Below are positions 18,077-64,000 of a DNA stretch of 64,000 nucleotides, one piece after another; positions within the stretch are counted from its first letter, which is position 1, and each line of letters begins with the position of its first letter. This DNA is from Carcharhinus amblyrhynchos. Lineage: Eukaryota. The position numbers were made by a program, and so were the translations under genes. The DNA is taken from positions 45,384,001 to 45,448,000 of the forward strand of contig OZ336889.1 of assembly GCA_965287045.1 (NCBI GenBank). The letters run 5' to 3'. Under the pieces are notes generated by a model. It saw only the letters and a program-made list of their open reading frames with translations. It searched no databases and was not told the origin of the DNA.

Positions 18077-18399
18077 TTACATACAGCTGGATCTGGAGAT
18101 GCTTGTTTGAAGCGGGTTTGCTTGAGTCTCGTGTTTAACCACACAGGAGTAAAGCTCGTGTGACTTCCAGTCTAAGGCTGACAGAGTCAGATAACTGCTC
18201 ACACTGAACGTGTTGTCCGCCTCCTGCTGGACCCGACTGGTCTCAACCCCATTCCGTCTGACGATGCCATCGACAGTCCATTCAATCTCCGCAGCTCCCG
18301 GTTTAAAACCGCTCACCAAACACACCAGGGTTGCCGTGTTCTTCGCTGTGATTTGATCCGATGAAGGTGGGAGGAGGGAGACAGATGGTTTCTGCGGAC
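18077..18399 (-). CDS. IGLC: IgL cluster 1 constant exon (lambda/type II-like)
   Basis: C1-set domain PSVSLLPPSS..ATLVCLVSGF..W..FSVSSYLTL..YSCVVKH..SRSSCM*; penultimate Cys for the H-L disulfide; acceptor AG at 18401-18400, phase matches the VJ exon (A+GT=Ser). Confidence 0.95.
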
Positions 18400-20183
18400 C
18401 TGGTTTAAAAATAAAATAGGTTGAGTAGTGTTGGAGGATTGATTTGGTTGACGCATTATGATTTTCCAAAAAAAATCTAAATCCTGTCATTCATTAAATA
18501 CAATAAATAGATCCCTTTACTTTGTGTGTTCATCCGAGGAACGGTGAAGGAGGGAGATCGATGGGACATTTGGATCTAAAAAGCGAAGTTCACTTTTAAT
18601 GACTGACTGGGGTTGAACTGGAGTTGACTCTGTTCAATTTTATAGACAACAATTCAATACATGCGCATTATATTTCGCAATGTGTCTCAGAATACCATTA
18701 ATGACATCTTGGCTCATAATACATTGTTGAAAATAACCCTGTTATTTTCAGCTGCCGTGTTTCCACATTGAGAATCTGCGTTGCCAGTTAAAATAAGAAA
18801 TAGTATTAGAAAAGCTGAACATAGATTAAATTTGCTCCATTGTGTTCCGATGGGAAGAAATGTTGATCAGTTTTACCTTCATGTTTTTACTGATGAAATT
18901 TGATGTTATAATCCTGAGCAGTGTAGTTACAGTTTCTCGGGCAGTTTCTCCCTGCGAGGTTCTCCCCTCTCGGCTCAGACGGTTTCAACTCCACACGGGA
19001 AGCTGACCGCGCTATCTGGACAGCAGTCCAGCGACGGGAAAGTGGCTCAGGCCGTAGTTACAGCTTTTGGATTAGAATTAAACCAAGATCCTCGATTGTT
19101 GGACCTAACTCACTAAGTGTTACAGTTTTGGAGGAAGTGCCGTCAGGCTATCGTCATTGTGCGAAATCAGATTAACCAGTGATCGGTCTCACTACCGTCT
19201 ACGGGGAAAAAGTGGCCGCGGAGATCATGTTGCGGATCTCATTAACAAAAATATTACGGCAAACACTCTGATATGTTTCGGATACAAGCCACGAAATAAA
19301 CGCAACTACTTGTTAGTACGGGCTGTGTCCTTAAATGTGCGTCTTTTGTTTGAGAGGACGATGGAAGTCTTGACTTTGTGCAACAGTGTAACAATGGTGA
19401 TCTCTGGACAGATAGGTTTACATTGAGGTTGACAGAAGTAGGAGTCGGGGAAATGTAAAATCTTTTGTCGACTCAGCATCCACCGTGTTACACTTTGGGC
19501 CGAGTTGCAATCCGCTCTCATACTGCTGGTATGGAGGCGCTATATTGATGCAACTTTCTGAGCGAGATTTAGAGCTAAGAGACAGTCTTATCTTCTTATA
19601 GTGGACGAGTTTAACTGCATAATTAGTGGAAGAGGTCAGTGTTAAATATGATGAACAGCATTACTATGGTGGAATTGTTGTACTGGGTCACATTCTGCCT
19701 TCTCTGATTACGTGTCTCTGCCTCGAAATAAGCAACAAACTCAGATCAGATTTCAACAGCGGAAGTGATTGGAGATTCCTGTGGGGCGCATGCTCAATAC
19801 ACAGGGCAATCTGGCAATGTGAATATTGGAACTCAATGATAAAATTTAATAATGTCACTGATTACATGTTCACACAATGTTAGTTTTAAAAAGACTGCGC
19901 TGTCGTGAAACTTGGTCAGGTTTCATTCATTACAGAGAAAACCAGGCAGTGATTCGCTATTTTACCTACACCCCAGCATACGCTTCAGCGGAGAAGTACA
20001 CAGGCCTAACTTACAGTGGCCGTGTGCATTCAAAGCTTTGTAATTAAACAAAGTCCGATAGAAAGTGTTTCCTCATGAGCGGCCAATCATCCTGCACTGT
20101 CCGTTCAAATCAACACTCCGGATTGAACGTCACTTCAACTCAAATCCGGGATATTCAATGTAGCAATAATTCCGTCTGAAAAT

Positions 20184-20452
20184 GGGCGGCACCATGGCAC
20201 AGTGGTTTGCATGACTGCTTCACAGCGTCAAGCAACCGGGTTCGATTCCCGCCTAGGGTCACTGCCTGTGAGGAGTTTGCATGTTTTTCCCTGTGTCTAC
20301 ATGGGTTTTCTCCGGGTGCTCCGGTTTCCTTCCACTCGGAAAGGCTTGCTGGTTGCGTGCATTAATCCCATCAGGCGCCGAAGTGTGGCGACTTGGGGAA
20401 TTTCACAGCAACTTCATTGCAGTGTAAACTTGTGACGAATTAATAAACTTTA
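20184..20452 (+). mobile_element. HE1-like V-SINE in the cluster 1 J-C intron
   Basis: A and B boxes, V domain, same tail as the 7020 copy. Confidence 0.85.
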
Positions 20453-21044
20453 AAAGTTAGCGGGAGATCCTAATGCAGAGCGTTGCAGTCTGTTTGATTT
20501 ATCATCCATTTTTTCCCTTCCTGTTTCTCTTGCTATATTTGATGGGCTATTTATAGGGCTATTTCTACGCGAGGTCCATCAGTTTAAGTAACTGGCGCAA
20601 GTGCTCATTATTTACTTGTGTCAACAGGCACTGTGATTTGGTAAGGTCTTTAAGGAACGGGATTTTAAAGCGTTGAGACGTTTATTGGTATTACCGGGGG
20701 TCTACATGTTGCCTTTCTCTGCAAGGTCATTTGATGGCACATGAGGATTAAAGCGCTTTGTTCATCCCACTGATCTGATGCTTCAGGAATTTTGCGGCTT
20801 GTTGTCATTCTGCCTGAACTAAAACAACTAAATGCAGACTGACAGACAGATCAGAAAACATTATCGAATTGGAAGGTGACAAATATTAACGTTATTTGCA
20901 CGGTCGCCTTGTACAGATTAAATTGAATTCATGGTTGTGTTGTTAAAAGAACATTTCAAAATATTCAAAATAAAGAATCAGGGAATGTTTTGTTATTAAC
21001 CAGAAGCGAGTTTTGAACAATGGAACAGAAGGGAATTTACTCAC

Positions 21045-21392
21045 TGCCACCGCCCAGCTTGGTTCCGCTGCCGAAGTAGTACAAGTTGTTTTTCCACATA
21101 GCACAGTAATACTCTGCGGTGTCCTCCGATTCAACTTGACCGATACTTAAAGTTCCCGTGTTACCGGATACCGAACCTGAAAATCGGTCTGGAACTCCCG
21201 GGGCTCTGTTAGTGCCGCTTCCAGCATAGTGATAAAGCAGGTACCGGGGGGCATTTTCAGATTTCTGCTGGTACCAATATATGTTAGCTCTTCCTAAACT
21301 GGCGCCAGACAAGGTACAACTTATTTGGACGGTTCCTCCGAGAGAAGTAGATTTCGAAGGCGGTTGACTAACAGTAATCGCCGCGTTAGAAA
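21045..21392 (-). CDS. IGLV: IgL cluster 1 germline-joined VJ exon
   Basis: Ig V-set motifs ISC, WYQQK, GVPDRFSGS, EDTAEYYC run without a break into J motif FGSGTKL; acceptor tctttcag at 21393; phase-1 donor GTGAGT at 21044; no RSS between V and J. Confidence 0.95.
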
Positions 21393-21527
21393 CTGAAAGA
21401 AAAGAAATTCCAAATATTAATGTTAAGCTACTCAAATTAATTACAGAAAAAAGACGACTTTAGAAAAATCACCGAAGTAGTCCTCGGAAACGCGCATTTA
21501 CATCGACCGGACGTTTTAAATACTCAC

Positions 21528-21576
21528 ATGCCAGGCCAAAAATGAACACAATGATCGCATGGACCCAGTCAGTCAT
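21528..21576 (-). CDS. IgL cluster 1 leader (signal peptide) exon, MTDWVHAIIVFIFGLA + 1 nt
   Basis: ATG at 21576-21574, 16 mostly hydrophobic codons, phase-1 GTGAGT donor at 21527, 135-nt intron to the AG acceptor at 21393; splices in frame to give ...GLAF-SNA|AITVSQPP. Confidence 0.92.
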
Positions 21577-21651
21577 TGTGAAAAGTTTGCCGAGGTACCG
21601 AGTTCTGCCAGTTATTTGACAAGATGGGCTAACTGTCTGAATCTCTCTCTC

Positions 21652-21733
21652 TTTTAATAACCCCTGTCACCAAGAAGGTGTTCCCTTGTGTTGGAATGCA
21701 AATTAGTCTTTTCGTCTCAACCAATCAGATTGG
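21652..21733 (-). promoter_or_regulatory. IgL cluster 1 promoter: octamer ATTTGCAT (21696-21703), TATA-like TTATTAAAA (21652-21660), CCAAT pair (21721-21733)
   Basis: Perfect octamer in light-chain orientation ~120 bp upstream of the ATG; conserved in cluster 2. Confidence 0.8.
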
Positions 21734-21926
21734 CTCCTAAAACCTGTGACGGTGACTGTAATCTGCCGATTTTTGGCCATTGTTATTGCTGTTAACTTTT
21801 CTGTCCCAGGGCTAAAACTTTATTTACTTTCAATAATTAAGCTTGACTAAAGCTGCAAAGCATTTCTAAAGTTTGTTTCATGAAAGGGCATCGACATGAA
21901 GCGTAAACTCTTTCCTTCTCCACAAA

Positions 21927-22048
21927 TGTGGAGATGCCGCTGTTGGACTGGGGTGAGCAAAGTAAGAAGTCTCACAACACCAGGTTAAAGTCAAACAGGT
22001 TTATTTGGCATCACCAGCTTTCGGAGCGCTGCTCCTTCATCAGGTGAG
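21927..22048. mobile_element. Short interspersed repeat, probably a Penelope-like terminus (copy at 43562-43683)
   Basis: cacaacaccaggttaaagtc..aacaggtttatttgg..agctttcggagcgctgctccttcatcagg, recalled as an abundant shark repeat end. Confidence 0.5.
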
Positions 22049-22369
22049 CCGCTCTTCTCCACAGAGGCTGTGTTGAGTATTTCTCATATTTTCTTGTTTC
22101 TGTTCAGGTTTTTGAATGTATTGAACTGAACCTTCCAATGTCTTGAAAAGCTTACCATTATCATGGTTACTTCCGAATGTATTCCTGTAAATAGCGGGTC
22201 AAATACAATCTATAAATATTGCTGATCAGTGAGACTGCAGTTTAGAACAAGTACAACGAATCAGGTAGGCAAATGACAAGATTTATCTTCCTGTAAGTGG
22301 ATTGGAGTGCAGGAATAACACAATTTTGCTGTAGTTGTGTAAAACCTGGAAACGGTCGAGAAATCATCG

Positions 22370-22650
22370 AATCCCTGAATGCGGAGGAGGCCATTTCATC
22401 CATCGAAACTACGCCGACAATTCGAACCAGGCCCAGTTACCCTGCTAGTCCCGCTGATGCTAAGGGGTAATTTTGCGTGACCGATTGAGTTAAGCTGCAC
22501 ATTTTTCTACTTTGAAGGAACAGCAAACGAAAACACAAGTAGACGCAGGGAGAATGTGAAAACGTCATACTTACAGTGACCCCAGTCCGCAATTGATCCT
22601 GAGTCTCTAGCACTTTAAGGCAGCAGTGCTAACTACAATGCCACAGTGCA
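22370..22650 (-). mobile_element. Degraded V-SINE (copy at ~44000-44285)
   Basis: ggcagcagtgctaactac head and ggaggccatt tail in reverse orientation. Confidence 0.65.
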
Positions 22651-23184
22651 CACCTGAGATAAACAATTTGCTTGCACGCTTAGGAAGGATATAATTTCAT
22701 TAATTCCTCGGACACGGTGTTGCCATACGATGAGAGTCTGAGTAAGTTGGGTCACCAGTCTTTGAATTTTTAATTAGTTAAATATTAGTTCATTTTATCA
22801 TCAAATGCTCGTTGAAAAAGTGTTAGTGCTGCAAAATGACAGGAACATAGTGTTAATTTGCGATGTTTTGAAATATTTAACGTTTTGCAACTTCATTAAT
22901 TAACTTTATCGATATGTTACAATGACTACATCTACTGTAGAACAGGCACAGCAGAGCTGAATTAAGCGCAGACATTGTAGGGAAAATACAATTCTAAATT
23001 TTCAATGAATAACATAAAGATAAATAACAGCTGTACGGAACACAAACACCGTGAAAAGTAAACATAAGTTTTGCTAAAGCTTAAAAGCACAACTTAAAAG
23101 AAGAAAATACAGAAACATCATTCTCCCACCCTACAGCTGTGAGTTTTTGAAGCGGAGATGTCGAGAGAGTCAAGGTATCAGTGA

Positions 23185-23765
23185 AACATAGAAACTAGAA
23201 GCAGGAGTAGGCCATTGCGCCCTTCGAGTTTGTTCCACCATTCATTTTGACCATGGCTAATCATCCAATTCAATATCCTGTTGAATCCTGAATGGATCTC
23301 CCTTCCCCCATATCCCTGGATGCCTTTAGCCCCAAAAGCTATATCTAATATTTTAATAAAATCCGAGAACGTTTTGGCCTCAACTACATTCTGTGGTAGT
23401 GAATTCCACGCATTCACCACTCTCTGGGTGAAGAAATTTCTCCTCCCCTCAGTTCTAAATGGTTTACCCCTTATCCTCAAACTATGACCCCCTCGTTCTG
23501 AACTCCAAAACCATCGGGAACATTCATTCTGAATCTACCCTGCCTAACCCTGCTAGAATTTCGAAAGTTTTTATGAGATCGCCTCTCATTCTTCTAAACT
23601 CCAATGAATATAATCCTCACCGACTTAGTCTGTCCTCGTACGACAGACTCCTTCCCAGGAATCATCCTGCTAAACCATCGCTTTACCCCTCTATAACAAG
23701 GACGTCCTTCGTCAGATAAGGACACCAAAACTGCACACAATACTCCATGTGTACTCTCACCGTCG
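23185..23765 (-). mobile_element. CR1 LINE 3' fragment
   Basis: RNFFTQRVVNAWNSLP motif and 3' tail. Confidence 0.88.
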
Positions 23766-24429
23766 CCGTTGTAGGGAAATTGAAGTTTAATTCTCAGTTT
23801 TAGATTAGTGTGCACACAATCGAAGTGTGTCAACCCAACCTGGTGTTTTGCTGAATTCTGGGACACAAACGCATCACATGACTTGATCTTGGCATCACAG
23901 TCAAACTGGATAAGGAATAAAGGACACACGATCTTAAGGCAGTAAAGTAGAACGTCAAGGTTGAACAGTTATGTGTATGGAACTATCCACCTCCCTAGCA
24001 ATTGAAATTATCAGCTCCGTTCCTTAAATTCAAAGTCCTGCTGTCCAGGAAAAAGCAAATACTAAATCTTTCAGCCATGTTTATTGAATCAGTGCGGTTT
24101 AACTTGTGATGTTTAAGGGAAATCATTTTATTTCACACCATGCAACATCTTTGACATTGTAAGTTTAGAATTATGGGCTATATTAGCATTTGTAACTTTG
24201 TAGTTCTTTCAAATTTTAATATCTGTTAGTTGAATGTATTGTGTTATATTTAACACGTCTAATCTCGTTCAAACATTAATATGTATTTTACAAACAGTTG
24301 TGTGTAATTGCTGTAACTTTATATGTTTGGAAATTATTGAACAAACTTAATATACTTATACCAAGAGCTGAAAGGTACAACACATGCATATTATTGAGAG
24401 TTCAATGTAATTTCTGACCATGACAGCAT

Positions 24430-24800
24430 TACCTGGAATGACAGGATGGTTACTGGGTGATAAGGGATACCGACTGAGGACACGGCTTATGATAAAATTC
24501 CACAAGACGAACGTGAAGCACCGGATCGTTACAACCGTGCTCAGATAGCATCTCGTCAGATGATGGTCCGGGTAATTGGCTTACTGAAGTGACGTTGGCT
24601 GGACGGGTCAGGTGGCATGTTACAGTATGCACCAGGAAACGTGACAAAGGTTTTTCTCGCGTGTTCTCGATTGCAAAACTATGCCCTCCAGCATAGAGCG
24701 GGCATTCACCGCGAAGATGACTTGCCTACGGAAATGGGGAAGCTGGACGAGGTCAACATGGAGCCTGATGGAGAGGCCGAGCTCCAGGTGACAATGGCAG
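24430..24800 (+). mobile_element. PIF/Harbinger transposase remnant (HARBI1-like DDE C-terminal part), disrupted
   Basis: Translation across a frameshift: GWLLGDKGYRLRTRLM..DRYNRAQIASRQMMVRVIGLLK*RWLDGSGGMLQYAPGNVTKVFLACSRLQNYA. Confidence 0.8.
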
Positions 24801-25274
24801 TTTTAAATCGCCTGGCAGCTGCTTTTGGACAATGAGCTGTTAAAATGATTAATTCGTATGTCCAAACACGCCCCTTGCAAAACTTGCATCCATTCCTTCC
24901 TTCCAGCCCTTCATCCCCCTTACCTCCTTGTCTACAAAAAGATTAGAAGTATTTTCTTAAAGTAGAAAACAGATTGCATTTTTTATGCTTCTAAAGTTAT
25001 GAAATATATTTTATTGAAAAATGTTTGAAAAGTTCAGATAGTTATTTCAGATAAATGTGAACATGATTAAACTTATACAGTGATAAAATTATTTTTGTCA
25101 TTTGGTTAATAATCTTCTTTCATTAAACTTAACAAAATGATTAAAATTATTTATTCAAACGTCAAACGTCAAAACGTCAAAATTCGAATGTTAGAATAAT
25201 GGAATACTTTAAATAAACAATGCAGAAATATTAATCTTAAACAAATCGGAATGAACAATGAAAAATGGAACATG

Positions 25275-25550
25275 CCGAAGAACAAAGAACCAAAGAACAA
25301 AATCAGCCTGGGAAACAGGCCCTTCGGCCCAACGAGCCCACGCTGCCATCTCAACACCACCTCTCTGCCCATGACCCCAATCTAATGTTTTATGGCCATC
25401 CAGATTGAGGGAAAACTGATTTGGGGACAATTTATTCCTGCCAATCAGCCTAACAGCACATCTTTGGGGTGTGGGAGGAAACCGGAGCACCCGGAGGAAA
25501 CCCACGCAAGCACGGGGAGAATGCGCAAACTCCCATAGACACTGGCCCAA
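25275..25550 (-). mobile_element. V-SINE with CR1-like tail (copy at ~46915-47185)
   Basis: aagaacaaagaac tail, ggcccttcggccca, V domain. Confidence 0.8.
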
Positions 25551-25814
25551 ATCCATGTGTCTGCACAGCAAACAGAGATAGTCACTGAGCTGTCGTCTTG
25601 CCCAGTATCTTGTCCAGTTTAGGCACACACTAACGACATGAAGCACTGGGCAGTCTCGAGCAACCAAAAGCAGCCCCAGTACGACCCATCGCGTGTATGC
25701 CCCTCGTTGGACACGAGGTGGACCGACTTAAAACCTGTGAATGAAAAGAGAAAAACATTATTATCATACTATACCCATTTACATTTCTAGGGACACCTCA
25801 ATGCTAATAACCCT

Positions 25815-26500
25815 TATTTAAAGGTTCTCCTATATCCACCCATCTCCAACTCAGTCATGTGCCTGTCTAAGTTACTCTTAAAGGACTCTAGCGTGTTTGC
25901 CTCCACCACCTTACTTGGCAGAGCATTCCATACCCCCACTACCCTCTGTGTGAAAAACCTCCCTCTAATATCTGTGTTGTACCGCTCCGCCCTCACCTTA
26001 AGCCCATGGCGTCTTGTCCTACGTGACTCTATTATAGGAAATAGTTTACCTCTGTTTACTCTATCTCTACCCTTCATAATCTTATATACCTCTATTAGAT
26101 CCCCCCTCAGTCGGCGTCTTTCAAGGGAAAAGAGCCCCAATTTCTTCAATCTTTCCTCATACCCCAGTCCTTCCATACCAGGCAACATCCTGGTAAACCT
26201 CCTCTGCACTCTCTCCAGAGTCTCCACGTCCTTCTGGTAGTACGGCGACCGGAACTGTACGCAGTACTCCAAATGCGGCCTAACCAACGTTCTGTACAGC
26301 TGCAACATTAGACTCCCGCTCTTCTATTCTATACCCCTTCCTATAAAGGCTAACATACCATAGGCTTTCTTCACCACACTCTCCACTTGCACTGCCACTT
26401 TCAAAGACTTGTGCACTTGCACCCCGAGGTCTCGCTGCGACTCTATACTCCTTACAGGCTTACCCTTTATCATATAATTTCCCCCTACATTATTCCGGCC
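25815..26500 (-). mobile_element. CR1 LINE ORF2 3' fragment
   Basis: RDLGVQVH..LYRTLVRPHLEYCVQF..LERVQRRFTRM..RRLRGDLI..FFTQRVV. Confidence 0.92.
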
Positions 26501-29074
26501 AGGAGAGTTGTTAACGTAGAGGTAGGAGTGTTGGAGGGAGAGGAAACGCAGCGCCACCGCGGCCCCGCCCCGTCCATTGACGTCTTTTTCTGCATCCCTG
26601 CTGGAAGTGAATCTTGCCCGCAGGCAAATGTATCTGAACGGGGTGGCTACTGGCCTGGGTTGGATTGTTGTTGTTGCTGTCTGGATGGGTGAAATGGCTC
26701 CATTCTACACTATAGAGGTTCTGTGGACGGAATTGTGTGGCTGTGCTCTACTCAAAACTGGAAAATACTGCCAGAGGTGAACAGGTCTTTCCATTGCCCA
26801 CTCCTCAACCACTAGGATTCTTGTGGCAGCGGGAAAGGGAAAATTCACCCCTATGATCCAATGACTAAATAGTACTTTCACCAACTTGAAACCAATAAAA
26901 CATTTGTTCATCTTTACATATTAACTGATATTCATATTCAATAATTGAAATAAATTTAACGAAATACGGGTTGAGTGAGCAATCTGTATGAACTATATAA
27001 AAGAAATAGCAATAAAAATGAAATGCAAATACGAACTTTTCTCAGAAAAGGCAGCCCTTTTCAAAGCAAAACTGTCTTTTGGAACCTGTATCTCAAAGGG
27101 CATTACTAGGCTGGCCGCAACATAAGGAAGTGTGGTTCAGGGATATCTTGCAACACCATGGGCCTGGTCAGGTGACTTTGTTGCGTGTTCGAGCCTGCTG
27201 CATACATTGGTAGTATCGGCGCAGTTGGTCAGGAGACCTAACTGTGCAATTTGTTTCTATTTTGCCTGTCCCTACATTGGCCATTGGAATTTATGGGCCA
27301 AGGAAATTTTGGGCCCTTGGTTTGAAAAATTTACCTGAACTTCCAATCAGAGCAGCATCCTCCCGCCTCAAAACTATCTGCTCAAGAACCAGCGCAACAC
27401 AGGAGAATCCTCACCAGGCCCCCTAATGATGAAGGCAGACTTGAAACGCCCATTAAGGCCCAGTTTGGAATTTGCAATTTTACATTGGAAACGGAAGGAT
27501 TTCCGTGCTGTTATAAAAGTATGTTTTTTGGAGGGGTTTATGACCATTTGAGACTAAATCGATTACGATAACCTAATTTAGAATGTATATTGTGCAGAAA
27601 AGGTACAAAGTACCTGGAGTCACAAAGGTACAGTTTGCATAGAAAAACATATAACCACTGTTAGAGATTATGAACATGCAATTGTGGATATTCTGTACAC
27701 CTTGGCCAACAACAGAGTTGAGTAAAAAGAACCACATTCATTGAAAATATTACAGCCACAAAGTGAAATCGAAAATGACTCTCTAATCAGCGTGGGTCTC
27801 AGATAGCTCGGGCAATCCCAGACAGCCAAATGAATGGTATAATACAATTTTCCCATAAAAGATTTCCTTAGTAGACAGTGGGAAAGGAACTTTTGAACTC
27901 TGTGGACTTATGTATGTAGGGCTGTTAGGAGACAGTGGGCAAGGGCGCCCAGGCTGCATGGATCTATGTATTTTTATGCTATATGAGGGTTAAATGATAC
28001 TGGCCGAATAATTCATACTAACATGATTGGCTCATCCGGTTCGGATGAACAGAGTAGGCAGGTAGATGATTTCTGAAAAATGTATAATTGTAATACTGCT
28101 AACAATGTAAATCAGAATAATTTGGGCTTCCACAAATAATTCTCCCACCCATGTTGACCACGCCTGGACAATAAAGAATGTCGTCAACCACAATAAGTGT
28201 CTCCGTGAGTCTTCATATTTGCTGAGCTGTAATTAATAAAGAGAAACCTCTCAAGTAAAAGCTAGCATAATAAATTGCTCTCTGAAAATGTTGAAGCATT
28301 TTTAATGTTTAATTATTTTACGTACTTGATGCTGTTGTTCAGAATTAATATTTTAATGTTTGAAAGTGAGCATTATTTAATGTAGAAACAGGTTGGATTA
28401 GTTTTCCTAAATTTGTGAAGGTACTATTTAAATCAGCATTATACTAACATATAACTTTATGTATGGTCCGCATTCAAATGTTCATATGTTTTACTTTATA
28501 ATGTGCTAAGTCTGAGAAACAATTTCATTCTGCATTATGTTATTGTAAAAGCTGTATAAGTGTTCCTGTGTTTTAATTTAGAACATTGAAACTGTACATT
28601 TCATTGGGAAACTGAGATATCAGAGCTTCTCAGACTATGATTTGCATAAGATTGAGCAAAACGGACTTCACATTTTGGGCCTTGGAAAATCTAAATGTGC
28701 TCATCATTGGTATTCTTCTACCTGGCTCAATTGACTTTTAATTCTCATATTTAATTGTCTGGAGTGTTTTTACAAAGCGTTTGCGTCAAACCAAATTTAA
28801 ATGTTTTGTTTCGTTCAATAAAATATGAATAGAATTTCATGGTTTAATAGAACACATTTATCACCAGAAGTAATATCATAGGTAGAAAACATTGCTATCA
28901 CATTAATGTTGAACTGAAGATTTGACTTCAGTCGCTGCACTGACATGTTTGTTGCCTCATCTTATCAGGTTTCTTATAAAATTTATGTTTCTATAACAAC
29001 CGTTAGTGAAATATTTCCTGCGCTCACACAACAGTCTGTTGTCTCTAAACAAGGAGGTAAGCAAGGGAAATGAA

Positions 29075-29430
29075 CAGCGGTGGGGAGAGGAAGGAGAGGG
29101 AGTGTGAGGGGAGGGGAAGGGGAGGGGATATGGGGAGAGGTGACATTGGGAGAGAGGATAAAAAGGAGTGGTAAAGATGGGGAGGAGGAAATAAGGAGGG
29201 GGAAATGGTGTGGGGGACACGGGAATGGTAAAACGGTAGGGGGAATGGTGAGGGTGAAATGAAGAGGTGAATGTGGGGAGGGGAAAATTGGGGAAGAGGA
29301 AAACAGAAGGGGGAAAGGGAGGAGGGCAAAAGGTGGATGGAGAAAACTGGAGTGAGAAAATGGTGAGCAGGAGAAGGAGGGAGCGGGAAAAGTGGGGAGT
29401 GGGATAAGGGTAAAAGAGAGAGGAGGCTTT
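29075..29430. repeat. Purine-rich (G/A) low-complexity tract (copy at ~50700-51080)
   Basis: Many GGGGA/GGGA/GGAG runs with very few C. Confidence 0.85.
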
Positions 29431-29806
29431 GGATGTTATAAATAGACTCACTCTTCCACGCCTGCATCAAAGGCTCAAAAAGAACTTTAGTTAAGAATAA
29501 AGCAAAACGCACAACTTTCCAGCGGTGGTGTAACATGCCCCCAGATTTTCAATCCGCACTGTATTCTGCAACATTAAATTAGGGAAACTGTTAGCATAGA
29601 GTTAGACAATGCTTCAAATATGTTGGAACATCCAAATCCTGAAATTTATACCAGACACTAACATCGACCGAGTTATACAGGAACATGCTTTTCACTAGAA
29701 TTATTGTCATGACAAAATGGTAAAAACATTTTTTAAAATCTTTCCCTTCCTTTCCTTGTATTCCAAATATGTTAAACATCTTTTTAAAATATTTTACAAA
29801 AAAAAT

Positions 29807-30236
29807 GTACTCGTTAGAGTTTAGAAGAATGAGGGGAGATCTCATTGAGACATATAAGATGATGAATGGGATGGATAGGATAGAGTTGGAGAGAATCTTC
29901 CTGCTCAGAAAGGATAGTAGGACTAGGGGGCACAGCCTCAAGATAAAGGGGGGGCGGTTTAGAACAGAGTTGAGGAGGAACTTCTTCACTCAAAGGGTGG
30001 TGAATCTCTGGAATTCTCTGCCCGTTGAAGTGGTGGAGGCTACCTCGCTAAATATTTTTAAGACGCGGGTAGATGGGTTTTTGACAAGAGAGGGATTAAG
30101 GGTTATGGGGAGAGGGCGGGAATGTGGAACTGAGCCACGACAGATCAGCCATGATCTTATTGAATGGGGGGTGCAGGCTCGAAGGGCTAGTTGGCCTACT
30201 CCTGCTCCTATTTCTTATGTTCTTATGTTATGTTCT
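29807..30236 (+). mobile_element. CR1 LINE 3' fragment with (TTCTTATG)n tail
   Basis: YSLEFRRMRGDLIETYK..RNFFTQRVVNLWNSLP. Confidence 0.92.
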
Positions 30237-33200
30237 AATCCTCCATGGAATTTCTGCTGCCTCTACTCGCTGCAGCTAGACCAAAGAATAAGTGTGCAAA
30301 TAAATAAGGGCAAAAACTAACTTAATATCAGCGCAGGTGACGGAGGTTTTGGTACAATTGCAGCTCAACGCTTCAATATCGGCAGCTTTGCAAACCTCAA
30401 TCGGAGGTTCAAATTTGCTGCTCTTTGTCTGCGCATGCGCCGAGACTTGCATCGGGTTCCGACGCGCATGTGCGGGGCATAATCGACTTTCAGTCGCATT
30501 CGGGCAGCAAGTTGCGGGCCACGTATTCTGTTGACCTTTCTGATTTCTCAAACTGGGTCTGACATTTCCCACATGTTAATGAATTCCCTGGAACATGGAC
30601 TTGCAAATTTGCAGCACCTTCGCCACCTGCTGTTTGGACTGCGGTGTGGCACTTCCTTCCACTGAAGCCATGGCATCAGCGTTCCTCAAAGTCGTGACCT
30701 GGTATTTACACATTGCCCCATTTTCAGGAACTTGGATGTTTAAAATGAACACGACTCACTGCATCTCTACACCTGCCTTCACACACAGGTTGTACATCCC
30801 CCTATTCCATTCGATGATGCTGTTTCTCCTCCACCAGCACAGTTTCGACATCTCGTTCCTCTGAAACTCTCTGCCCTGTTCCCCAAGGAGCACCTCTTCC
30901 ACTGACTCACCACCATGACCTACTGGTATGTCCAAGGACAACTGTGAATCCAGCAGATGGAAATGTTTGCAATTGTTGATCGGATGAAATAAACTTCCCT
31001 CCTCGTACACCGTTTAAACATTTAGTTAATGACATTTCGTTTGTGCATTATAACACCAGAATGAACAAAGATTACTTCAGGATTAATGTCCGCCCCCCCC
31101 CTCCGCCCCCCCGACCACACACGCACACAGTTACCGGACAAATTCCCGGTGTTCAGTGCGGTCATTCAGGAAGATAAAACAGCCCCTGGGCAAACGGTGC
31201 CCCCTGACATTCTGGGCAACCGTTCCTTCTGAAAGGAAATGTTGATTCACTTTCTCCCGTTACCGGAAGCAAACAGAAAAAACATTCTGTGAGGACGAAA
31301 ATTAGACACAACATTTGTTGAGAAGTCAGCACCATCTCAATACCACTGAAATTTACCACATCTTCTTAAATGAGGAACTGCTCATATCACGTGACCCTGT
31401 AACCTAAGATTTATATTTTATACGGAACAGCGTGAATCCATACACGTGCCCAGGCTCAACTTCCAAGGCATTGAATTTCTTACGGCACTCACTACACCGC
31501 CAGTTTATCTGCCAAAGGACACCTTTGAATCCGTCAGAATGAAATGGTTATAAATATTTATTACATGAATAAACTTTCCATGCTCTAACATGGTTCAAAC
31601 ACTCAGTTAGTGACGTATCGTTTGTGCATTCCAGAATTAGTCTGAGCACTGGTTACTCCGACCTGAATGGTTCCCAACAGTTACCTGAGCACCTCAGTGA
31701 GCTCAAACAGGAAGGCGTCACCGCCCAGGTCACAGAGTGCTTCCGGGCATTATGGGTAACCATTTTCTCAATACATAAATGAATAAAAAACCTTGTTTTC
31801 TTACTACCCTGTCTTCTGAAACCCTTTGTACAGTTAATGGAGACAAACCTAATGGTACAAATACAAACTGATACGTCCACATTGTGCCAACGACGATTAG
31901 AGATTACAGTTGATAACAAGGGCGGCACTACCTTCAAACAACTGGAATTTTCGACACTTATGAAATGAGGAAACATGCACATCCAATTGCCTTTTAACTA
32001 TCTACAATCAAACTAAGATTTTTTTGATCAAATATCATCGATTCATATCCATGTCCTGGCAGGACGCCCAAATCATTGATAGTTTTACGGCCCCTATAAA
32101 TAAATGACACGCTTCCACTTGCAATCACTGCCTGTCAATTTCTTTCCAGGCTGAGGTATTGATTTTTCTTGGACGACTTCAAGCTTCCATTACCGAAGAC
32201 GCGGCGATGCCTGCTTTCAAGTTCACAAAGCCGAATTTTGAGACCTGCATCCACTAAATTATGAAATAATTTATTCTGATTCACATTCTGCGATGCAACA
32301 CGTTTTGAAGTCAGTTAAATGATTGATTTCTACTTTGCTAAGGTAACAATTTTCTAAAATGTACTTCCCCATTTATTTTACTGTCAGCATTTTATGGTTT
32401 AATTCAACGCTTTCCACGTTCTTTAAATTATGTTAAACGTGTACAGACCCATGAAAACAATTGAAATGTTTGAAATTAGTTTTGAAATCCTTTAAATTCA
32501 TTTAGAACTTTGGAAAGCGCCCGGCGGAGGACTGAAGGGATTTCAACGGCCGTTCCGTCAAATGTTGACTTCAATCGGGCTGCCACTTCTGAGACTCGCG
32601 TATACTCCTGGTGCCTGTCTCCCTAGACAGCTGAGTCCGGCAGCAGGGAGATGAAGACCCGAAACCTGCAGTGGTAAACGTTAAGGCAGCAGATTCAATA
32701 GTGGTCAGCGGCACGACAGCCTCGCAGCCAACCGGATCCTCTGGGTGAATATTTAAGAGATACTTACGATTCGCACTGCTGTGATGTCACCAAGCATTGT
32801 AAGGAACTAACGGCATTACAGCATTTTTACAGACAATAAATTAAAAAGTACAAACTCGCCCGTCATTAAAAGCCGAGACAAACCTCATTCAGGAAGATGT
32901 ATAGAGCAGTTTAAGCAGAGAGCCTAATAGTGTAATAACACAAGTTCTTGAAAATTCAATAGTTTGGAGTTGATTGCAGTTGTCAGGAACCCGGCTGATG
33001 TTATCTGCGAAGATGTCCCAAACTGAAGCACCGAGAAATGGGTGTGTAAACCGGATCGGTGTGAGGAATAATGTGCAAGACCCAACGAGTAGAGTGGACA
33101 GCCCAGTCGGAGTACAACACTAATAAATACAATAAAAACGACATATATACACTAATAGCACTGTAACGATCGAAAACAGTGAAATGTAGGAACTACTAAA

Positions 33201-33340
33201 CTCACACACGCACTATAGGCAGAAATTAGACTACTTACGCGATCTGAAAAATTTCAGAACTTTCCTCCCTGAACAACATCCAATTCAATAGATTTATAAG
33301 TGAATGCCAGCTTATGGTTACTACACTGTATTCGATTGTT

Positions 33341-33620
33341 TAAGTTTATTTATTAGTGTCACAAATAGGCTTACATTAACTCTGCAATGAAGTCACTCTG
33401 CAATCCGTTTGTTGCCATACGGCAGTGCCTATTCGGGTACACTGAGGTAGAATTTGGAATGGCCAATGCACCAAAGCAGCACCTCTTTGGGACGGTGGAC
33501 GGAAAATGGAGGACCCGAGGAAACCCACGCAGACACGGAGAGAAAGTGCAGATTCTGCACAATTAGTGACACGGGCCCCTGGCGCTGTGAGGCAGTAGTG
33601 CAAAATACTGAGCCACTTTG
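33341..33620 (-). mobile_element. HE1-like V-SINE (copy at ~55873-56153)
   Basis: Same family tail and V domain in reverse orientation. Confidence 0.8.
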
Positions 33621-34249
33621 AGAACTTATTCTGGAGAATTGAAAATATGACTTTAACTGCCTCCACAAAGATGTCAGCCCTCATGCTTCGAGTCCGCGAG
33701 CTGGGACTGACCACTCCTCTTCTCTCCACAGTTAAGTTCCTCTCTCTGTTACAGTTTAAGCACAGAGGCAGTGCCTATACAATGAAAAAAAGAGCGGGTG
33801 CAAAAATCATCAGCTTTAGGAAAAGGCGGATGACAATTTTAAAATAAATTCCTTGCGGAAATGCACTTTTATATGAACTTCAATTCCTGCAGTCCCAACA
33901 CCAGCATGAAGAAAATCTGCCACAGATACCAGTAAAATACCCATCTCAGTGAACTTTTGCTTTACTTTTCCTTTTGTCATTGAATTTTAATTTGGCTAAG
34001 GAAACAGCGAACTACTGCAAAGCTTGGTAATTCAACGTGTTTTCCTGTGTAGGTGATCATATTCCGAAATTGAGAGTTATCTTGTGAAATAGTCCATCAC
34101 TTTATCTGGGTGGGTTTTTATATCCACGCAAGTTAACCTTTTTTCCTGTTTTAAACGCATGGAGCCGAGCCAGATTAAGTTATATGATAACATCATATAA
34201 ACGTTTAAGAACAGACTGCTAACTTCATCTTCATTTTAGACGCCGGTCA

Positions 34250-34405
34250 CCACCCACAACAGCTCCACCTCCCCCGCACCACCACCACCTCCCACCCGCT
34301 ACCGCCCCCCCCCCACCCCACCCCGCCAACCCCACGCCCCCCGCCCCCCACCCGCCCCCCCCCCCCCCCCCCCCCCCTCCCCACCACCTCGCCCTTCCAG
34401 CCCCA
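34250..34405. repeat. C-rich low-complexity tract with poly-C (copy at ~56783-56936)
   Basis: Consecutive C runs, one longer than 20 nt. Confidence 0.9.
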
Positions 34406-37400
34406 AAAACGAAAAGTCTGTTATGGTCAGATTTGGAGAGGTCTGATGGGGGAGTCGTGTGCATCCCCTCTTCAAGTGGCTGTAAGACTATCCATTGTAA
34501 CATATTTCCAATCGTTACTGCATTCTTCAATTCCAGTACCAATCTTTCCGCAGGATCTTTATAAAATGTCTCTCTGAAATCCAAGTACCAGACTTTCCAA
34601 CTATCATGGCTCTTTACCAAAGAAACACAACAAGTTAGGTGAATGAATTCTCGGCCATGACTCTAATGCCCTATCTTTGTAGATCTGCTTTCTGTACGGA
34701 TGCTCGATGATATTATTTCTAATAAATGTTTCCCGACTTTTCCACCCAATGGGCGGCAGACTCACCACATGTGTTTCCATGAATCACTTTTACTACTATT
34801 AAAAGAGTTAATCTGCTTACGTCCCGTGCCCAGACACCTCCCCAGTATTCAGCATTTTCTCGGATATTTCTGCCAGAGTTCCTGCAACTTCCTAAAGTAA
34901 GATTTCTTGAAAGCAATTGATTAGGCTGTGGATCGATGGCCGAGTGCTATTATCGCTACACTATTAGTCCAGAAAGCCAGCTGATGTCCTGTGGCCAGAG
35001 ATTCGAATTCGGCAACGGCAGCTGTTGCTAATAAAAAAAATGTGGGAATGAGGACCATGAAACGATTGTCGGCAAAATCCCATCTGGTTCACTAACGTAC
35101 CTTTAGGGAAGGAAATCTGCCGTCCTTGCCTGGTCTGGCCTCAATGTGACACAAGAGCCACAGCAACAGCCCTCTGATCAAGAGCAACTAGGGATAGGGA
35201 ATATGTGCTGGCCACCCAGCGACGTCCGTGTCCCACCAATGAATGAAAAACAATGCGCTCCTATTGGGTTTTTACGGCTGTTTGGCCATCATTTGCTCTC
35301 ATTTGGGAAGCACGTTATTTACAGAGAATTGAGTGTCAAATGCGCGCCGATATCAGGACCCGGGAATAGGAGAGGTCACGTGTTGGGCATATCCATGAGA
35401 CTGAATCAATCTGGGTCGAGTTCATGCACTGCTCGAAGTGGAGTCTGTTCCTTAACGGCGCACTGGAAAATTCGAAGCAATTGGTTCCAGAAATTAATTG
35501 AAAAGAACACATCCCTTTATTTAGAGACCATTCAGTAGTATGAGGCGATCATGGATTTATTTCTCCCGATTTCTTCACGGCAAACAAAATATTTTTGGAC
35601 GCTTCCTCTCTCACAATTCCAAACCATCCCTCGAACTTATGATTTGCAATCATGGAGCGGTAGTACATACAGAAGGAGGCGGTTCGGCCGATCAAGACTG
35701 ACTGGCGCTTTGGAATTGAGATCCGTGAAATCCCACTCAACTCATCTTTCCCCTGACAATTCTCCTCCTGACAATTCTCCCCATTACAATTACATGGCGC
35801 CTTTCACGATATCAGGGCGTCCTGAGGCTCTTCACAGTCAATGGAATACTTTTGAAGTGTAGTCACTGTTGTGATAGGGATCAGGGCAAAAAAATCTGTG
35901 CACATCTCACTTTCACAAGCAGAAAGGTCATCAAAGCAAAATCATTTCCAGTGATGTTCATTGAAGGGAAGGTTGTTTACCCAATACTTTCATGGATTGA
36001 TTTCATGGATTTATTTTCTTTAATGGAGTGATATGAACCACGTAAAGGCAAGAAAATATTAGATTCGAGAGGCATCTGCATCAGCACAGACTGGTGGGCC
36101 GAAGGGCCAGTTCCTGTGCTATACTGTTCTTTCAGTAAAACTCACATCTACATGGGACACAATAGGCAGACACGGTTTCATGACTCTTCTGAAGGATGTC
36201 ATAGTCAACAGAATGGCATGATTAAAGAATGCAATTCTGTTGAAATGCTATAAATCAGTTTCAGTGGCCAGGAAACAATGTACCAGGTTTAATTTTCTTT
36301 GTCCAATGCCTATGGAATTCATCAATCTAATTGCTAAATGGCTGTACCGTCATTTGTAGAACCTAGACAGAGTTCTTCAGCTGGCACAGGAGATAGAGCA
36401 GGTTTGCAGCTTTCAGAACCGTGTTTGGTCAAACAGCGCATTGACTAACAGGCTGTGCAATTGAATGTGGATATCTGTGATGAAGCCAAAATCAGCAGCC
36501 ACACGCTCCAGCAAAAGATGGATTGAAACCTTGCATTGTTTCTATTAAAGTTTTGCACTGACAGTTTTTAACCTGGCTTTAGCAATCTTCTTCATCTTGT
36601 GATTGGTCAACGAGGGCCAAGCCGAATAAAAATTAAATTACTTCCTACTCCCTTCGTCGGTAATCAACACCAGGAAACACTTAACAACCTGGACATGAGG
36701 ACATAAGAAAGAGGAGCAGGAAGATGACCTTTTGCCCTTCGAATCTGTTGCGCCATTCAGCAAGGTCATGAACAGATCATCTACCTCAAGACCACCTTCC
36801 TGCGCTATCCCCAAATTCGATGATTAGCTGAATAAGTCAAAATAAATCACCAGCTTGAATGATCACAGTGACTGCGATTCCACAGTTCTCTGCGTAGAAA
36901 ATTAAAATATTATCAATATGATGCACATTGTTGGGGTGCAAGTCTTGATCCTGTCCAAACACTGCCCTCTAAACACAGCCAACGCGATAATGATCAATTT
37001 ATTCCTGTTTCCTGTTTTCTGTCCATTCACCAATTTAAATTCAGTCTCAGATATTGCACCCAATCCCACATGTCCGAATTCTATCCATGAAACGTGTGTG
37101 GTGGTTCCTGATTTATCGGTTTTTTTGTAAAAATACGAATAAACCCGCTGACCCCACCTTATTCTTCTTTCCAGTAACATTCTCAAAAAACTGACTTTCA
37201 AAGTCTGCTATTATAACCCCGCCAAGAAAGAGTTCTAGGTTTTTGCCTGCGCTTGGTGCTAGACTCACAGTCCTCTGATTCCACAATTTTTTTTCCTCCT
37301 TTCATAAATTTCAGGATTGACTTTGCCACATTCCAACCTTCGAGAACTATTGCAGAATCAAGGGATTCCGGAAGTTTGACTACAATATCTCCTTGCAGTT

Positions 37401-39420: not shown

Positions 39421-39426
39421 TTTATT
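39421..39426 (-). terminator. polyadenylation signal AATAAA, cluster 2
   Basis: Position homologous to cluster 1. Confidence 0.65.
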
Positions 39427-39733
39427 GAACAGTTTTATCTAAATGTCTGAGAGTAAGTAGACTCTTAAATTGCAATAACCGAATTGTTGCAGTTTAATTA
39501 TGATTATCGGATACATAAATGTAAATTGATAAACAACGAGGATTCACTGAACACGGCAATGTTCCGATTGAAGACCCTTTTAAAAGAGCAACTGTTAAAA
39601 CCCGAAGCTCCAGCCGCGGTGGCCATTTTCTTCAATTTCTGAAGTACGATCAATTTCTACTCTTTTTGTCACATGAAAGAGATGAACCGAAATGAACAAA
39701 CATTCGCAGCTGGGCCGACAGCAGTTTCTGAAT

Positions 39734-42679: not shown

Positions 42680-43027
42680 TGCCAACGCCCAGCTTGGTTC
42701 CGCCTCCGAAGTAGTACATGCTGCTTTTCCATATAGCACAGAAATACTCTGCGGTGTCCTCCGATTCAACTTGACCGATACTTAAAGTTCCCGTGTTACC
42801 GGATACCGAACCTGAAAATCGGTCTGGAACTCCCGGGGCTCTGTAAGTGCTGCTTCCAGCCCAGTGATAAAGCAGGTACCGGGGGGCATTTTCAGATTTC
42901 TGCTGGTACCAATATATGTTGCTGCTTCCTAAACTGGCGCCAGACAAGGTGCAACTTATTTGGACGGTTCCTCCAAGAGAAGTAGATTTCGAAGGCGGTT
43001 GACTGACTGTAATCGCCGCGTTAGAAA
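42680..43027 (-). CDS. IGLV: IgL cluster 2 germline-joined VJ exon
   Basis: Open V-set frame joined to J (YFCAIWKSSMYYFGGGTKL); splice sites intact. Confidence 0.95.
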
Positions 43028-43162
43028 CTGAAAGAAAAGAGATTCCAAATATTAATGTTAAGCTACTCAAATTAATTACAGAAAAAAGACGACTTTAGAA
43101 AAATCACCGAAGTAGTCCTAGGAAACGCGCATTTACATCGACCGGACGTTTTAAATACTCAC

Positions 43163-43211
43163 ATGCCAGGCCAAAAATGAACACAATGATCGCATGGACC
43201 CAGTCAGTCAT
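43163..43211 (-). CDS. IgL cluster 2 leader exon, MTDWVHAIIVFIFGLA + 1 nt
   Basis: Same sequence as the cluster 1 leader; GTGAGT donor at 43162. Confidence 0.92.
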
Positions 43212-43286
43212 TGTGAAAAGTCTGCCGAGGTACTGAGTTCTGCCAGTTATTTGACAAGATGGGCTAACTGTCTGAATCTCTCTCTC

Positions 43287-43368
43287 TTTTAATAACCCGT
43301 GTCACCAAGAAGGTGTTCCCTTGGGTTGGAATGCAAATTCGTCTTTTCATCTCAACCAATCAGATTGG
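43287..43368 (-). promoter_or_regulatory. IgL cluster 2 promoter: octamer 43331-43338, TATA-like element, CCAAT pair 43356-43368
   Basis: Same motifs and spacing as cluster 1. Confidence 0.8.
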
Positions 43369-51875: not shown

Positions 51876-52750
51876 AGAACATAGAACATAGAACATTACA
51901 GCGCAGAACAGGCCCTTCGGCCCACGATGTTGCGCCGACCAGTTACAAAAACAATGACCCACTAGCCTATACCAATCCCTTTTCGTCCATAAACCTATCC
52001 AGAGATCTCTTAAACGCCCCCAAACTAGACGCATTTACAACTGCAGCAGGCAGGGCATTCCAATCCCTCACCACCCGCTGGGTAAAGAACCTACCCCTGA
52101 CATCCGTCCTGTAGCTACCCCCCCTTAATTTAAAGCCGTGCCCCCTCGTGCTAGCTTTCTCCATCCGAGGAAAAAGGCTATCACTATCCACCCTATCTAA
52201 ACCTCTAATCATCTTATATGTTTCAATAAGATCCCCTCTTAGCCGCCTTCTTTCCAACGAAAACAACCCTAAATCCCTCAGTCTCTCCTCATAGGACCTC
52301 CCCACCATACCAGGCAACATCCTAGTAAACCTCCTCTGCACCCTCTCCAACGCCTCCACATCCTTCTTGTAATGCGGGGACCAGAACTGCACACAGTACT
52401 CCAAGTGCGGCCGCACTAGAGTAGTGTACAGTTGCAACATTACACTGCGACTCCTAAATTCAATCCCCCTACCAATAAACGCCAAGACACCGTACGCCTT
52501 CTTAACAACCTTATCTACTTGATTCCCAACTTTCAGGGATCTATGTACACACACACCTAGATCCCTCTGTTCATCCACACTATTCAAAGTCCTCCCGTTA
52601 GCCCTATACTCGACACATCTGTTGCTCCTACCAAAGTGAATTACCTCACTTCAAAGTGAATTAGAGATAGGATCTGTACACATTTAGAACTGAATAGTCT
52701 TATTAGCGATAGACAGTATGGTTTTTTTGTGCGAGGGAGGTCATGCCTAT
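51876..52750 (-). mobile_element. Young CR1 LINE insertion specific to unit 2, with an inverted 5' segment
   Basis: Uninterrupted 206-aa ORF2 C-terminus (51967-52587) and (ATAGAAC)n tail; absent from the homologous site at ~30218. Confidence 0.93.
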
Positions 52751-61700: not shown

Positions 61701-61954
61701 AGTTACGTCTTTAATACAGAGATACTGGCTTCGTGAGTCTTGCATGTTCTAAAGCTTGGGTAGTACCGGTCATCTCGGTAACCCCACCAACAGGGAGTAC
61801 GAGCAATAGCTTAGATTCCACAGCTGAAAATAAAAGGTTTTCAATATAACATGTTACGGAAGGCGGAATAATACCGAAAAAGTATTAGATTTGACTGACC
61901 TTGAAAATAGCAATAAAGGATACGGTGAGTCGTATTGCATTTGATCTTAATTAT

Positions 61955-61960
61955 TTTATT
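61955..61960 (-). terminator. polyadenylation signal AATAAA, cluster 3
   Basis: Position homologous to clusters 1 and 2. Confidence 0.65.
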
Positions 61961-62267
61961 GAACACTTTTATCTAAATGTCTGAGAGTAAGTAGACTCTT
62001 AAATTGCAATAACCGAATTGTTGCAGTTTAATTATGATTATCGGATACATAAATGTAAATTGATAAACAACGAGGATTCACTGAACACGGCAATGTTCCG
62101 ATTGAAGACCCTTTTAAAAGAGCAACTGTTAAAACCCGAAGCTCCAGCCGCGGTGGCCATTTTCTTCAATTTCTGAAGTACGATCAATTTCTACTCTTTT
62201 TGTCACATGAAAGAGATGAACCGAAATGAACAAACATTCGCAGCTGGGCCGACAGCAGTTTCTGAAT

Positions 62268-62590
62268 TTACATACAGCTGGATCTGGAGACGGTTGTTTT
62301 AAGTGGGTTTGCTAGAGCCTCGTGTTTGACCAGACAGGAGTAAAACTCGTGTGACTTCCAGTCTAAGGCTGACAGAGTCAGATAACTGCTCACACTGAAC
62401 GTGTTGTCCGCCTCCTGCTGGACCCGACTGGTCTCAACCCCATTCCGCCTGACGATGCCATCTATAGTCCATTCAATCTCCGCAGCTCCCGGTTTAAAAC
62501 CGCTCACCAAACACACCAGGGTCGCCGTGTTCTTCGCGGTGATTTGATCCGATGAAGGTGGGAGGAGGGAGACAGATGGTTTCTGCGGAC
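62268..62590 (-). CDS. IGLC: IgL cluster 3 constant exon (VJ and leader expected beyond the window end)
   Basis: Intact C1-set frame; the homologous J-C intron continues to 64000. Confidence 0.93.
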
Positions 62591-64000
62591 CTGTTTTAAA
62601 AATAAAATAGGTTGAGTAGTGTTGGAGAATTGATTTGGTTGACGCATTATGATTTTCCAAAAAAAATCTAAATCCTGTCATTCATTAAATACAATAAATA
62701 GATCCCTTTACTTTGTGTGTTTATCCGAGGAACGGTGAAGGAGGGAGATCGATGGGACATTTGGATCTAAAAAGCGAAGTTCACTTTTAATGACTGACTG
62801 GGGTTGAACTGGAGTTGACTCTGTTCAATGTTATAGACAACAATTCAATACATGCGCTTTATATTTCGCAATGTGTCTCAGAACACCATTAATGACATCT
62901 TGGCTCATAATACATTGTTGAAAATAACCCTGTTATCTTTAGCTGCCGTGTTTCCACATTGAGAATCTGCGTTGCCAGTTAAAATAAGAAATAGTATTAG
63001 AAAAGCTGAACAAAGATTAAATTTGCTCTATTGTGTTCCGATGGGAAGAAATGTTGATCAGTTTTACCTTCATGTTTTTACTCCTGAAATTTGATGTTAT
63101 AATCCTGAGCAGTGTAGTTACAGTTTCTCTGGCAGTTTCTCCCTGCGAGGTTCTCCCCTCTCGGCTCAGACGGTTTCAACTCCACACGGGAAGCTGACCG
63201 CGCTATCTGTACAGCAGTCCAGCGACGGGAAAGTGGCTCAAGGCCGTAGTTACAGCTTTTGGATTAGAATCAAACCAGGATCCTCGATTGTTGGACCTAA
63301 CTCACTAAGTGTTACAGTTTTGGAGGAAGTGCCGTCAGGCTACCGTCATTGTGCGAAATCAGATTAACCAGTGATCGTTCTCACTAACGTCTATGGGGAA
63401 AAAGTGGCCGCGCAGATCATTTTGCGGATCTCATTAACAAAGATATTACGGCAAACACTCTGATATGTTTCGGATACAAGCCACGAAATAAACGCAACTA
63501 CTTGTTAGTACGGGCTGTGTCCTTAAATGTGCGTCTTTTGTTTGAGAGGACGATGGAAGTCTTGACTTTGTGCAACAGTAACAATGGTGATCTCCGGACA
63601 GATAGGTTTACATTGAGGTTGACAGAAGTAGGAGTCGGGGGAATGTAAAATCTTTCATCGACCCAGCATCCACCGTGTTACACTTTGGGCCGAGTTGCAA
63701 TCCGCTCTCATACTGCTGGTATGGAGGCGCTATATTGATGCAACTTTCTGAGCGAGATTTAGAGCTAAGAGACAGTCTTACGAATTTAACTGCATAATTA
63801 GTGGAAGAGGTCAGTGTTAAATATGATGAACAGCATTACTATAGTGGAATTGTTACACTGGGTCACAATCTGCCTTCTCTGATTACGGGTCTCTGCCTCG
63901 AAATAAGCAACAAACTCAGATTAGATTTCAACAGCGGAAGTGATTGGAGATTCCTGTGGGGCGCATGCTCAATACACAGGACAATCTGGCAATGTGAATG

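Follow-up and report, generated by a model that had tools for sequence, protein, structure and literature searches.

Lambda light-chain genes of cartilaginous fish (type II/NS3), among them those of the cloned sandbar-shark chains P0068, P0101 and P0108, are organised as V-J-C clusters with a germline-joined VJ, a split leader and an octamer promoter. All of them are described as germline-joined in two reports (PMC4279169, PMC5192425), and a 2025 paper calls shark lambda 'entirely V-J joined in the germline' (PMC12227049). Joined VJ genes that keep their promoter and introns were likewise described for nurse-shark kappa (NS4), for which germline joining of the RAG type was demonstrated and where the joins are recent and lie beside split relatives (PMC2193156). 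Sigma-2 genes (type I/NS5) are also frequently joined in the germline. Here we analysed 64,000 nucleotides of Carcharhinus amblyrhynchos DNA (the window, C20:45,384,001-45,448,000; positions are those of the window unless prefixed C20, C9, C12, C13, C26 or C280), for which an initial annotation had proposed a tandem array of germline-joined lambda light-chain genes. In a reading that we consider highly probable, the three clusters of the window belong to a tandem array of seven intact lambda (type II/NS3) genes, whose V is divergent and has a long second complementarity-determining region (CDR2); V and J were likely joined by germ-cell RAG before sharks and rays separated, and the genes were likely diversified later by duplication and by selection on the inherited loops. 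Unlike the nurse-shark kappa genes, all members of this family are joined, and the joins are likely ancient. Since pre-joined shark lambda clusters are textbook knowledge, what the array contributes by itself is a map and not a principle; the divergent V family and its pattern of selection are modest additions. A split lambda-type gene in the same locus, L049, matters more than the joined array. In a search that covered mainly the main texts of open papers, we found no publication that deals with split shark lambda or with a shark lambda family of long CDR2.

Joined lambda clusters with a divergent V domain

The window contains three head-to-tail clusters of leader (L), VJ and C exons on the minus strand, with three C1-set and two V-set exons. 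The clusters B2 and B3 are complete, whereas of B4 the window includes the C exon and a truncated J-C intron (Table 1). The C exons lie 21,657 and 22,534 bp apart, as the annotated spacings of 21.7 and 22.5 kb had it, and the two distances differ because a LINE-like (long interspersed nuclear element) insertion of about 873 bp sits in one spacer only. Self-comparison of the window revealed tandem units, each about 21.6 kb long, with identities of 94.2% across 17.6 kb and 99.4% across 11.3 kb; this bears out the proposed amplification by duplication. Each complete unit consists, in this order, of an octamer 127 bp upstream of the ATG, a leader exon of 49 nt, an intron of 135 bp, a VJ exon of 348 nt, an intron of about 2.6 kb, the C exon and a poly(A) signal. 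V continues in frame into J through the CDR3 sequences AMWKNNLYY and AIWKSSMYY. The family as a whole comprises seven head-to-tail genes, B1-B7 (C20 45.38-45.51 Mb), whose spliced open reading frames (ORFs) are intact in all seven cases (238-239 aa), and the octamer is kept in six of them. In B5 (L004, C20:45.471 Mb) the octamer is mutated and the ORF intact.

The scan for recombination signal sequences (RSSs) with looser settings found none in any of the seven genes. The same scan detected RSSs in both kappa-type clusters and in one sigma-type V of the same genome that served as positive controls, the isotype labels of which rest on trees and on the polarity of the RSSs. Another scan, over 244 kb, returned four weak RSS-like matches, none inside any gene. 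The genes B1-B7 are thus joined in genomic DNA, without RSS, as had been noticed for the two complete clusters of the window. Since both introns and the promoter are kept, the joined genes are not processed copies, and retroposition, which the initial annotation had also excluded, was ruled out.

Contigs of eight of the 23 listed read runs, apparently from related taxa or other individuals, were compared with these gene models. In four small runs (three guessed to be RNA, one unlabelled) the leader intron was skipped in all four and the J-C intron in two, at the predicted GT-AG sites, and one 711-nt contig from a small RNA-like run spanned both spliced introns. The predicted L-VJ-C splicing was thus observed in relatives. 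No joint across CDR3 was present in any of four large runs (two guessed to be DNA, two unlabelled), the contigs of which read straight through, in line with the predicted joined form of genomic DNA. As the contigs seem to derive from related taxa or other individuals, they support the V family and not any given copy. They bear, too, on the idea that errors of the assembly, or somatic rearrangements in sequenced lymphocyte DNA, gave rise to some of the copies; the 11.3-kb tract of 99.4% identity between neighbours could speak for it. We regard this as extremely unlikely: every VJ exon of B1-B7 differs from all others (B3 and B4 at 11 of 348 bases), and DNA-like runs of other taxa or individuals, their source tissue unrecorded, contained several distinct contigs that span CDR3 without a joint.

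The C domains of the window family were 82-89% identical to the three sandbar-shark lambda chains and formed a clade with sandbar, Squalus, Callorhinchus and Hydrolagus chains (support 95; this and the other C trees were quick trees). Identity of the B2 C domain to other C domains of the same genome was 45% for kappa-like, 47% for sigma-like and 41% for sigma-2-like. The TOP3 gene at C20:46.42 Mb, 0.9 Mb from the array, is TOP3B, and MIF-family matches were found at C20 48.7 and 49.5 Mb; TOP3B and MIF are neighbours of human IGL. IFT81, given as a marker of true lambda in sterlet and gar in PMC5985310, is on C20 as well, 17 Mb from the array. There are two SNF5/SMARCB1-like genes (C20:52.02 Mb and C13:75.78 Mb), which makes this marker ambiguous for lambda synteny. 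From the C identity and the nearby TOP3B we assign B1-B7 to the type II/NS3 lambda isotype, as initially annotated.

The V domains presented a different picture. They were only 43-53% identical to sandbar lambda V, 46-55% to lambda V of the same genome and 47-57% to tetrapod lambda-like V, and their CDR2 has seven residues, as against three in the sandbar chains and three or four in the main-array members scored. They formed a clade of their own, with support of 97/96 in a 65-row V tree and of 86 in a quick 40-row tree. Automatically named RefSeq models of sharks and rays ('immunoglobulin lambda-1 light chain-like', 238-249 aa, CDR3 of 8 or 9 aa) belong to the same V family at 61-89% identity. 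The Hydrolagus chain P0133 combines a long CDR2 with a lambda C but falls outside the window V clade. The array represents a second V family, which is conserved and has a long CDR2.

The CDR1/CDR2 lengths of the window family, 8/7, are given as invariant for sigma-2 in PMC5985310, and would fit a sigma-2-derived V domain shuffled onto a lambda C. Such an origin is most improbable, as the window V is 31% identical to that of the sigma-2-like gene on C280 (a label inferred in this analysis), against the 46-55% and 47-57% given above for lambda V of the same genome and tetrapod lambda-like V, and does not group with sigma or sigma-2 in the trees. The sigma-2 isotype for the whole gene was rejected on the same grounds: neither V nor C groups with sigma-2, and C is 41% identical to the C280 gene, which lies on another contig.

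The classical lambda array (34 clusters, C20 43.99-44.66 Mb) lies on the same chromosome, about 0.7 Mb from B1-B7 and on the opposite strand. Its 33 joined clusters (L050-L082, C20:44.01-44.66 Mb) have a CDR3 of 11 aa in 25 cases, 9 aa in four, 12 aa in three and 5 aa in one, and two of these CDR3s are identical to those of sandbar-shark chains. The 5-aa CDR3 recurs in ray and Callorhinchus models. The members L064, L066, L074 and L077 are visibly broken. Two further joined genes, X1 and X2 (L008 and L009, C20:45.340-45.367 Mb), neighbour B1-B7 in opposite orientation; their CDR2 has six residues, their C is 54% identical to the window C, and orthologous models exist in sharks and rays. A search for lambda-like V with the most distal V as query (E<=1e-12; 150 of 654 candidates scored) returned at least 43 matches, all on C20, of which 42 were joined and one, L049, was split.

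Age of the joins and later diversification

Among 25 matches of the VJ search, 14 were L-VJ-C models of sharks and rays from ten genera (Mustelus, Cetorhinus, Scyliorhinus, Carcharodon, Chiloscyllium, Hemiscyllium, Heterodontus, Pristis, Hemitrygon and Amblyraja). Their CDR3 has 9 aa in 11 models and 8 aa in three, with the same lengths and motif from Heterodontus to Pristis. The presence of orthologues of this V in both sharks and rays suggests a join likely far older than the tandem duplications. In the 65-row V tree B1 clustered with ray genes (100/93), apart from B2-B7; the split between B1 and B2-B7, and likely their joins too, would therefore be older than the shark-ray divergence, dated to at least 200 million years in PMC2193156. 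We conclude that the joins likely predate the separation of sharks and rays.

The initial annotation had read an identical 9-aa CDR3 and shared flanking transposable elements as evidence of one ancestral join. The 9-aa length held for B2-B6, five of the seven genes, but not for the end members B1 and B7, which have 8 aa; equal length is therefore no proof of a single join for the array, and the shared flanks date the duplications alone. The 8-aa CDR3 of B7, placed within a 9-aa clade, is most simply explained by later loss of a codon. A recent single join in this lineage, amplified together with its flanking elements, could account for the common CDR3 length of B2-B6 and for the sharing of the tandem unit with the B6 zone (86%) and the B7 zone (62%). 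It is nevertheless very unlikely. The CDR3 lengths and motif recur in the orthologues, and B1, which clusters with ray genes, has a CDR3 of 8 aa and only 12% of the unit in common. With the orthologues in sharks and rays, the claim of one ancestral join drawn from CDR3 length and flanks was not supported in that form.

The C exons and the V domains appear to have followed different courses. B1 and B2 differ at 23 of 323 C-exon bases and in about 50% of their introns, and the 99.4% tract spans spacer and C exon and ends short of VJ, which points to homogenisation of the C exons across the array. For B2-B7 the ratio of nonsynonymous to synonymous differences per site (pN/pS) was 2.68 in CDRs and 0.37 in framework, with the CDR1 and CDR2 windows set two codons wider than in IMGT. 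Distinct changes from the consensus numbered 34 replacement and 2 silent in 28 CDR codons, and 17 and 16 in 86 framework codons (Fisher p=6.2e-5). Similar counts were obtained for 24 of the 33 joined genes of the main array (L057-L082 without L062 and L066), with 85 replacement and 11 silent changes in CDRs and 48 and 23 in framework (p=0.0016). These values indicate positive selection on the germline CDRs of B2-B7, so that inherited loops would be under positive selection while C is homogenised. Germline action of AID was not supported as the cause of the CDR differences: WRC/GYW enrichment was nominally significant in one of 21 region tests (main-array framework, p=0.0026) and in none of the window family. 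Nor did substitutions at neighbouring positions show a clear excess in CDRs over upstream or intron sequence.

In the model that we favour, germ-cell RAG would have made the ancestral V-J joins before the divergence of sharks and rays. B cells would transcribe one copy from its octamer promoter without light-chain rearrangement, and the joined light chain would pair with a heavy chain from a rearranged gene; on the heavy-chain side rearrangement normally persists. Unequal crossing-over or conversion may have homogenised C, with selection keeping the VJ exons different. Somatic hypermutation, which occurs in nurse-shark lambda, may contribute further diversity later. The RAG-independent repertoire put forward in the initial annotation would accordingly apply to somatic light-chain assembly only and not to the origin of the joins, which was likely germline RAG. 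The seven near-identical promoters, together with distinguishable CDRs, offer a ready assay for how B cells choose one copy without rearrangement.

Several points weigh against this reading. The spliced contigs come from other taxa, are of guessed or unrecorded RNA status and are not attributable to one copy, and no RNA run is on record for C. amblyrhynchos itself. The copy number of seven rests on one assembly. The orthologues are gene models, from which we infer their joined state. The deeper forks of both the V and the C trees have little resolution: the quick tree gives the family a support of 86, and the lambda C domains of sharks and of tetrapods fail to form one clade. The replacement and silent counts are non-independent owing to gene conversion, and the CDR1/CDR2 lengths equal those of sigma-2.

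A split lambda-type gene in the same locus

L049 (C20:43,988,854-43,995,146, minus strand), at the end of the lambda locus and 1.4 Mb from the array of the window, is the only split gene among the at least 43 lambda-like V genes, and it was single-copy in that search. It consists of V, an RSS with a 23-bp spacer, an RSS with a 12-bp spacer, J, an intron of 5.4 kb and C, with the coding ends 255 bp apart in all; the V-23/12-J signals give it lambda polarity. Each heptamer is one base off consensus, and the C exon carries a TAG stop. In the quick tree its C grouped with those of X1/X2 (support 84), outside the classical clade. Its CDR1 of 8 residues lies outside the lambda-2 range and its CDR2 of 3 within it (5-7 and 2-3 residues in PMC5985310). 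Together with the location, these lengths favour lambda over lambda-2, with which the comparison was made through the published ranges. Sequence searches for L049 returned no named lambda-2 chain. A PDB search with the L049 V returned mostly human light-chain and single-chain Fv (scFv) entries, lambda where named, and a HMMER search of cluster representatives gave mostly multi-V models and nothing beyond the Callorhinchus model.

Orthologous models of L049 were found in Mustelus (XP_078083771), Stegostoma (XP_048412406), Hemiscyllium (XP_060700049), Chiloscyllium, Rhincodon, Heptranchias (XP_067861670), Scyliorhinus torazame and Callorhinchus (XP_007906701). In Mustelus the V is 98% identical, the C lacks the stop and the model is intact; heptamer-like residues precede its J. 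The S. torazame model reads through an apparent J signal, GFYTAPYHSGRYF compared with GFCTASYHRGWYF in L049. From this read-through and the heptamer-like residues in Mustelus, both orthologues are likely split. The models of carpet sharks and the sevengill shark have mostly a plain 9-aa CDR3, one V-only model excepted, and look joined.

These observations suggest that shark lambda is not entirely pre-joined and comprises several ancient V families, including that with the long CDR2, as well as a single-copy family that retains V-23/12-J signals for rearrangement in carcharhiniforms and is seemingly joined in carpet and sevengill sharks. We put the chances of this proposal at about even. If it is true, a lambda gene that rearranges would be known from cartilaginous fish for the first time, and a split/joined pair inside one lambda family would show that joined lambda arose by germline RAG joining and does not represent unsplit relics. 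L049 contradicts the description of shark lambda as wholly joined, and it allows the choice between relic and rejoined genes to be tested for lambda.

That joined lambda genes could be never-split relics of a VJ exon older than RAG was raised as a question in PMC2193156, and the joined state does look old and near-universal (42 of at least 43 V genes). This origin is very unlikely given the split V-23/12-J cluster in the same locus, the main-array CDR3 lengths of 5, 9, 11 and 12 aa, as several joins would give, and the split 23/12 lambda of sterlet (PMC5985310).

Features of the window and other immunoglobulin loci

The coordinates of the features are collected in Table 1. The LINE-like insertion, presumably of CR1 type by its resemblance, is placed in the tail of an older element and provides a marker for ordering the duplications. 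Pfam assigned no family to the two LINE-like ORFs tested, Rfam gave no match in the window, and a PDB search with the window C returned generic immunoglobulin chains only. A short repeat in the J-C intron of B2 (20166-20455) was abundant in the RNA-like contigs of relatives and is likely a common short interspersed nuclear element (SINE).

Table 1. Positions of gene parts, repeats and duplicated tracts in the window
Feature	Position	Strand	Remarks
Poly(A) signal AATAAA, B2	17764..17769	-	
C exon B2, C1-set, lambda type	18077..18399	-	splice joint 18397/21043 (cut +2) in relatives' contigs
J-C intron B2, 2645 bp, GT..AG	18400..21044	-	relatives' spliced contigs
Joined VJ exon B2, CDR1/2/3 = 8/7/9, without RSS	21045..21392	-	
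Leader intron B2, 135 bp	21393..21527	-	relatives' spliced contigs
Leader exon B2, 49 nt	21528..21576	-	
Promoter B2	21651..21703	-	octamer ATTTGCAT 21696-21703; TATA-like box 21651-21658
Poly(A) signal B3	39421..39426	-	
C exon B3	39734..40056	-	
J-C intron B3, 2623 bp	40057..42679	-	
Joined VJ exon B3, CDR1/2/3 = 8/7/9, without RSS	42680..43027	-	
Leader intron B3	43028..43162	-	
Leader exon B3	43163..43211	-	
Octamer B3	43331..43338	-	
LINE-like insertion, ~873 bp, one spacer only	51876..52747	.	
Poly(A) signal B4	61955..61960	-	
C exon B4	62268..62590	-	
J-C intron B4, cut by window end	62591..64000	-	joined VJ outside: C20:45449208-45449555 (~+65.2-65.6 kb)
Duplicated unit, 94.2% to 34377-51875	12766..30218	+	
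Very recent duplication or conversion tract, 99.4% to 52748-63998	30216..41465	+	spans spacer, C exon and part of J-C intron; ends before VJ exon

Light-chain and related loci were also seen elsewhere in this genome. About 40 kappa-type clusters (L083, L084) are located at C9:83.8-85.6 Mb, and the two that were read are split, with 12/23 signals. Four sigma-type C exons (L085, L086) lie at C26:36.1-36.2 Mb. The sigma-2-like gene on the small contig C280 (L087, C280:84,800-92,200) is a joined VJ-C gene, and dozens of single-exon V-J-like domains, distant relatives of sigma-2-type V, extend over 1.3 Mb at C12:89.2-90.5 Mb (L088).

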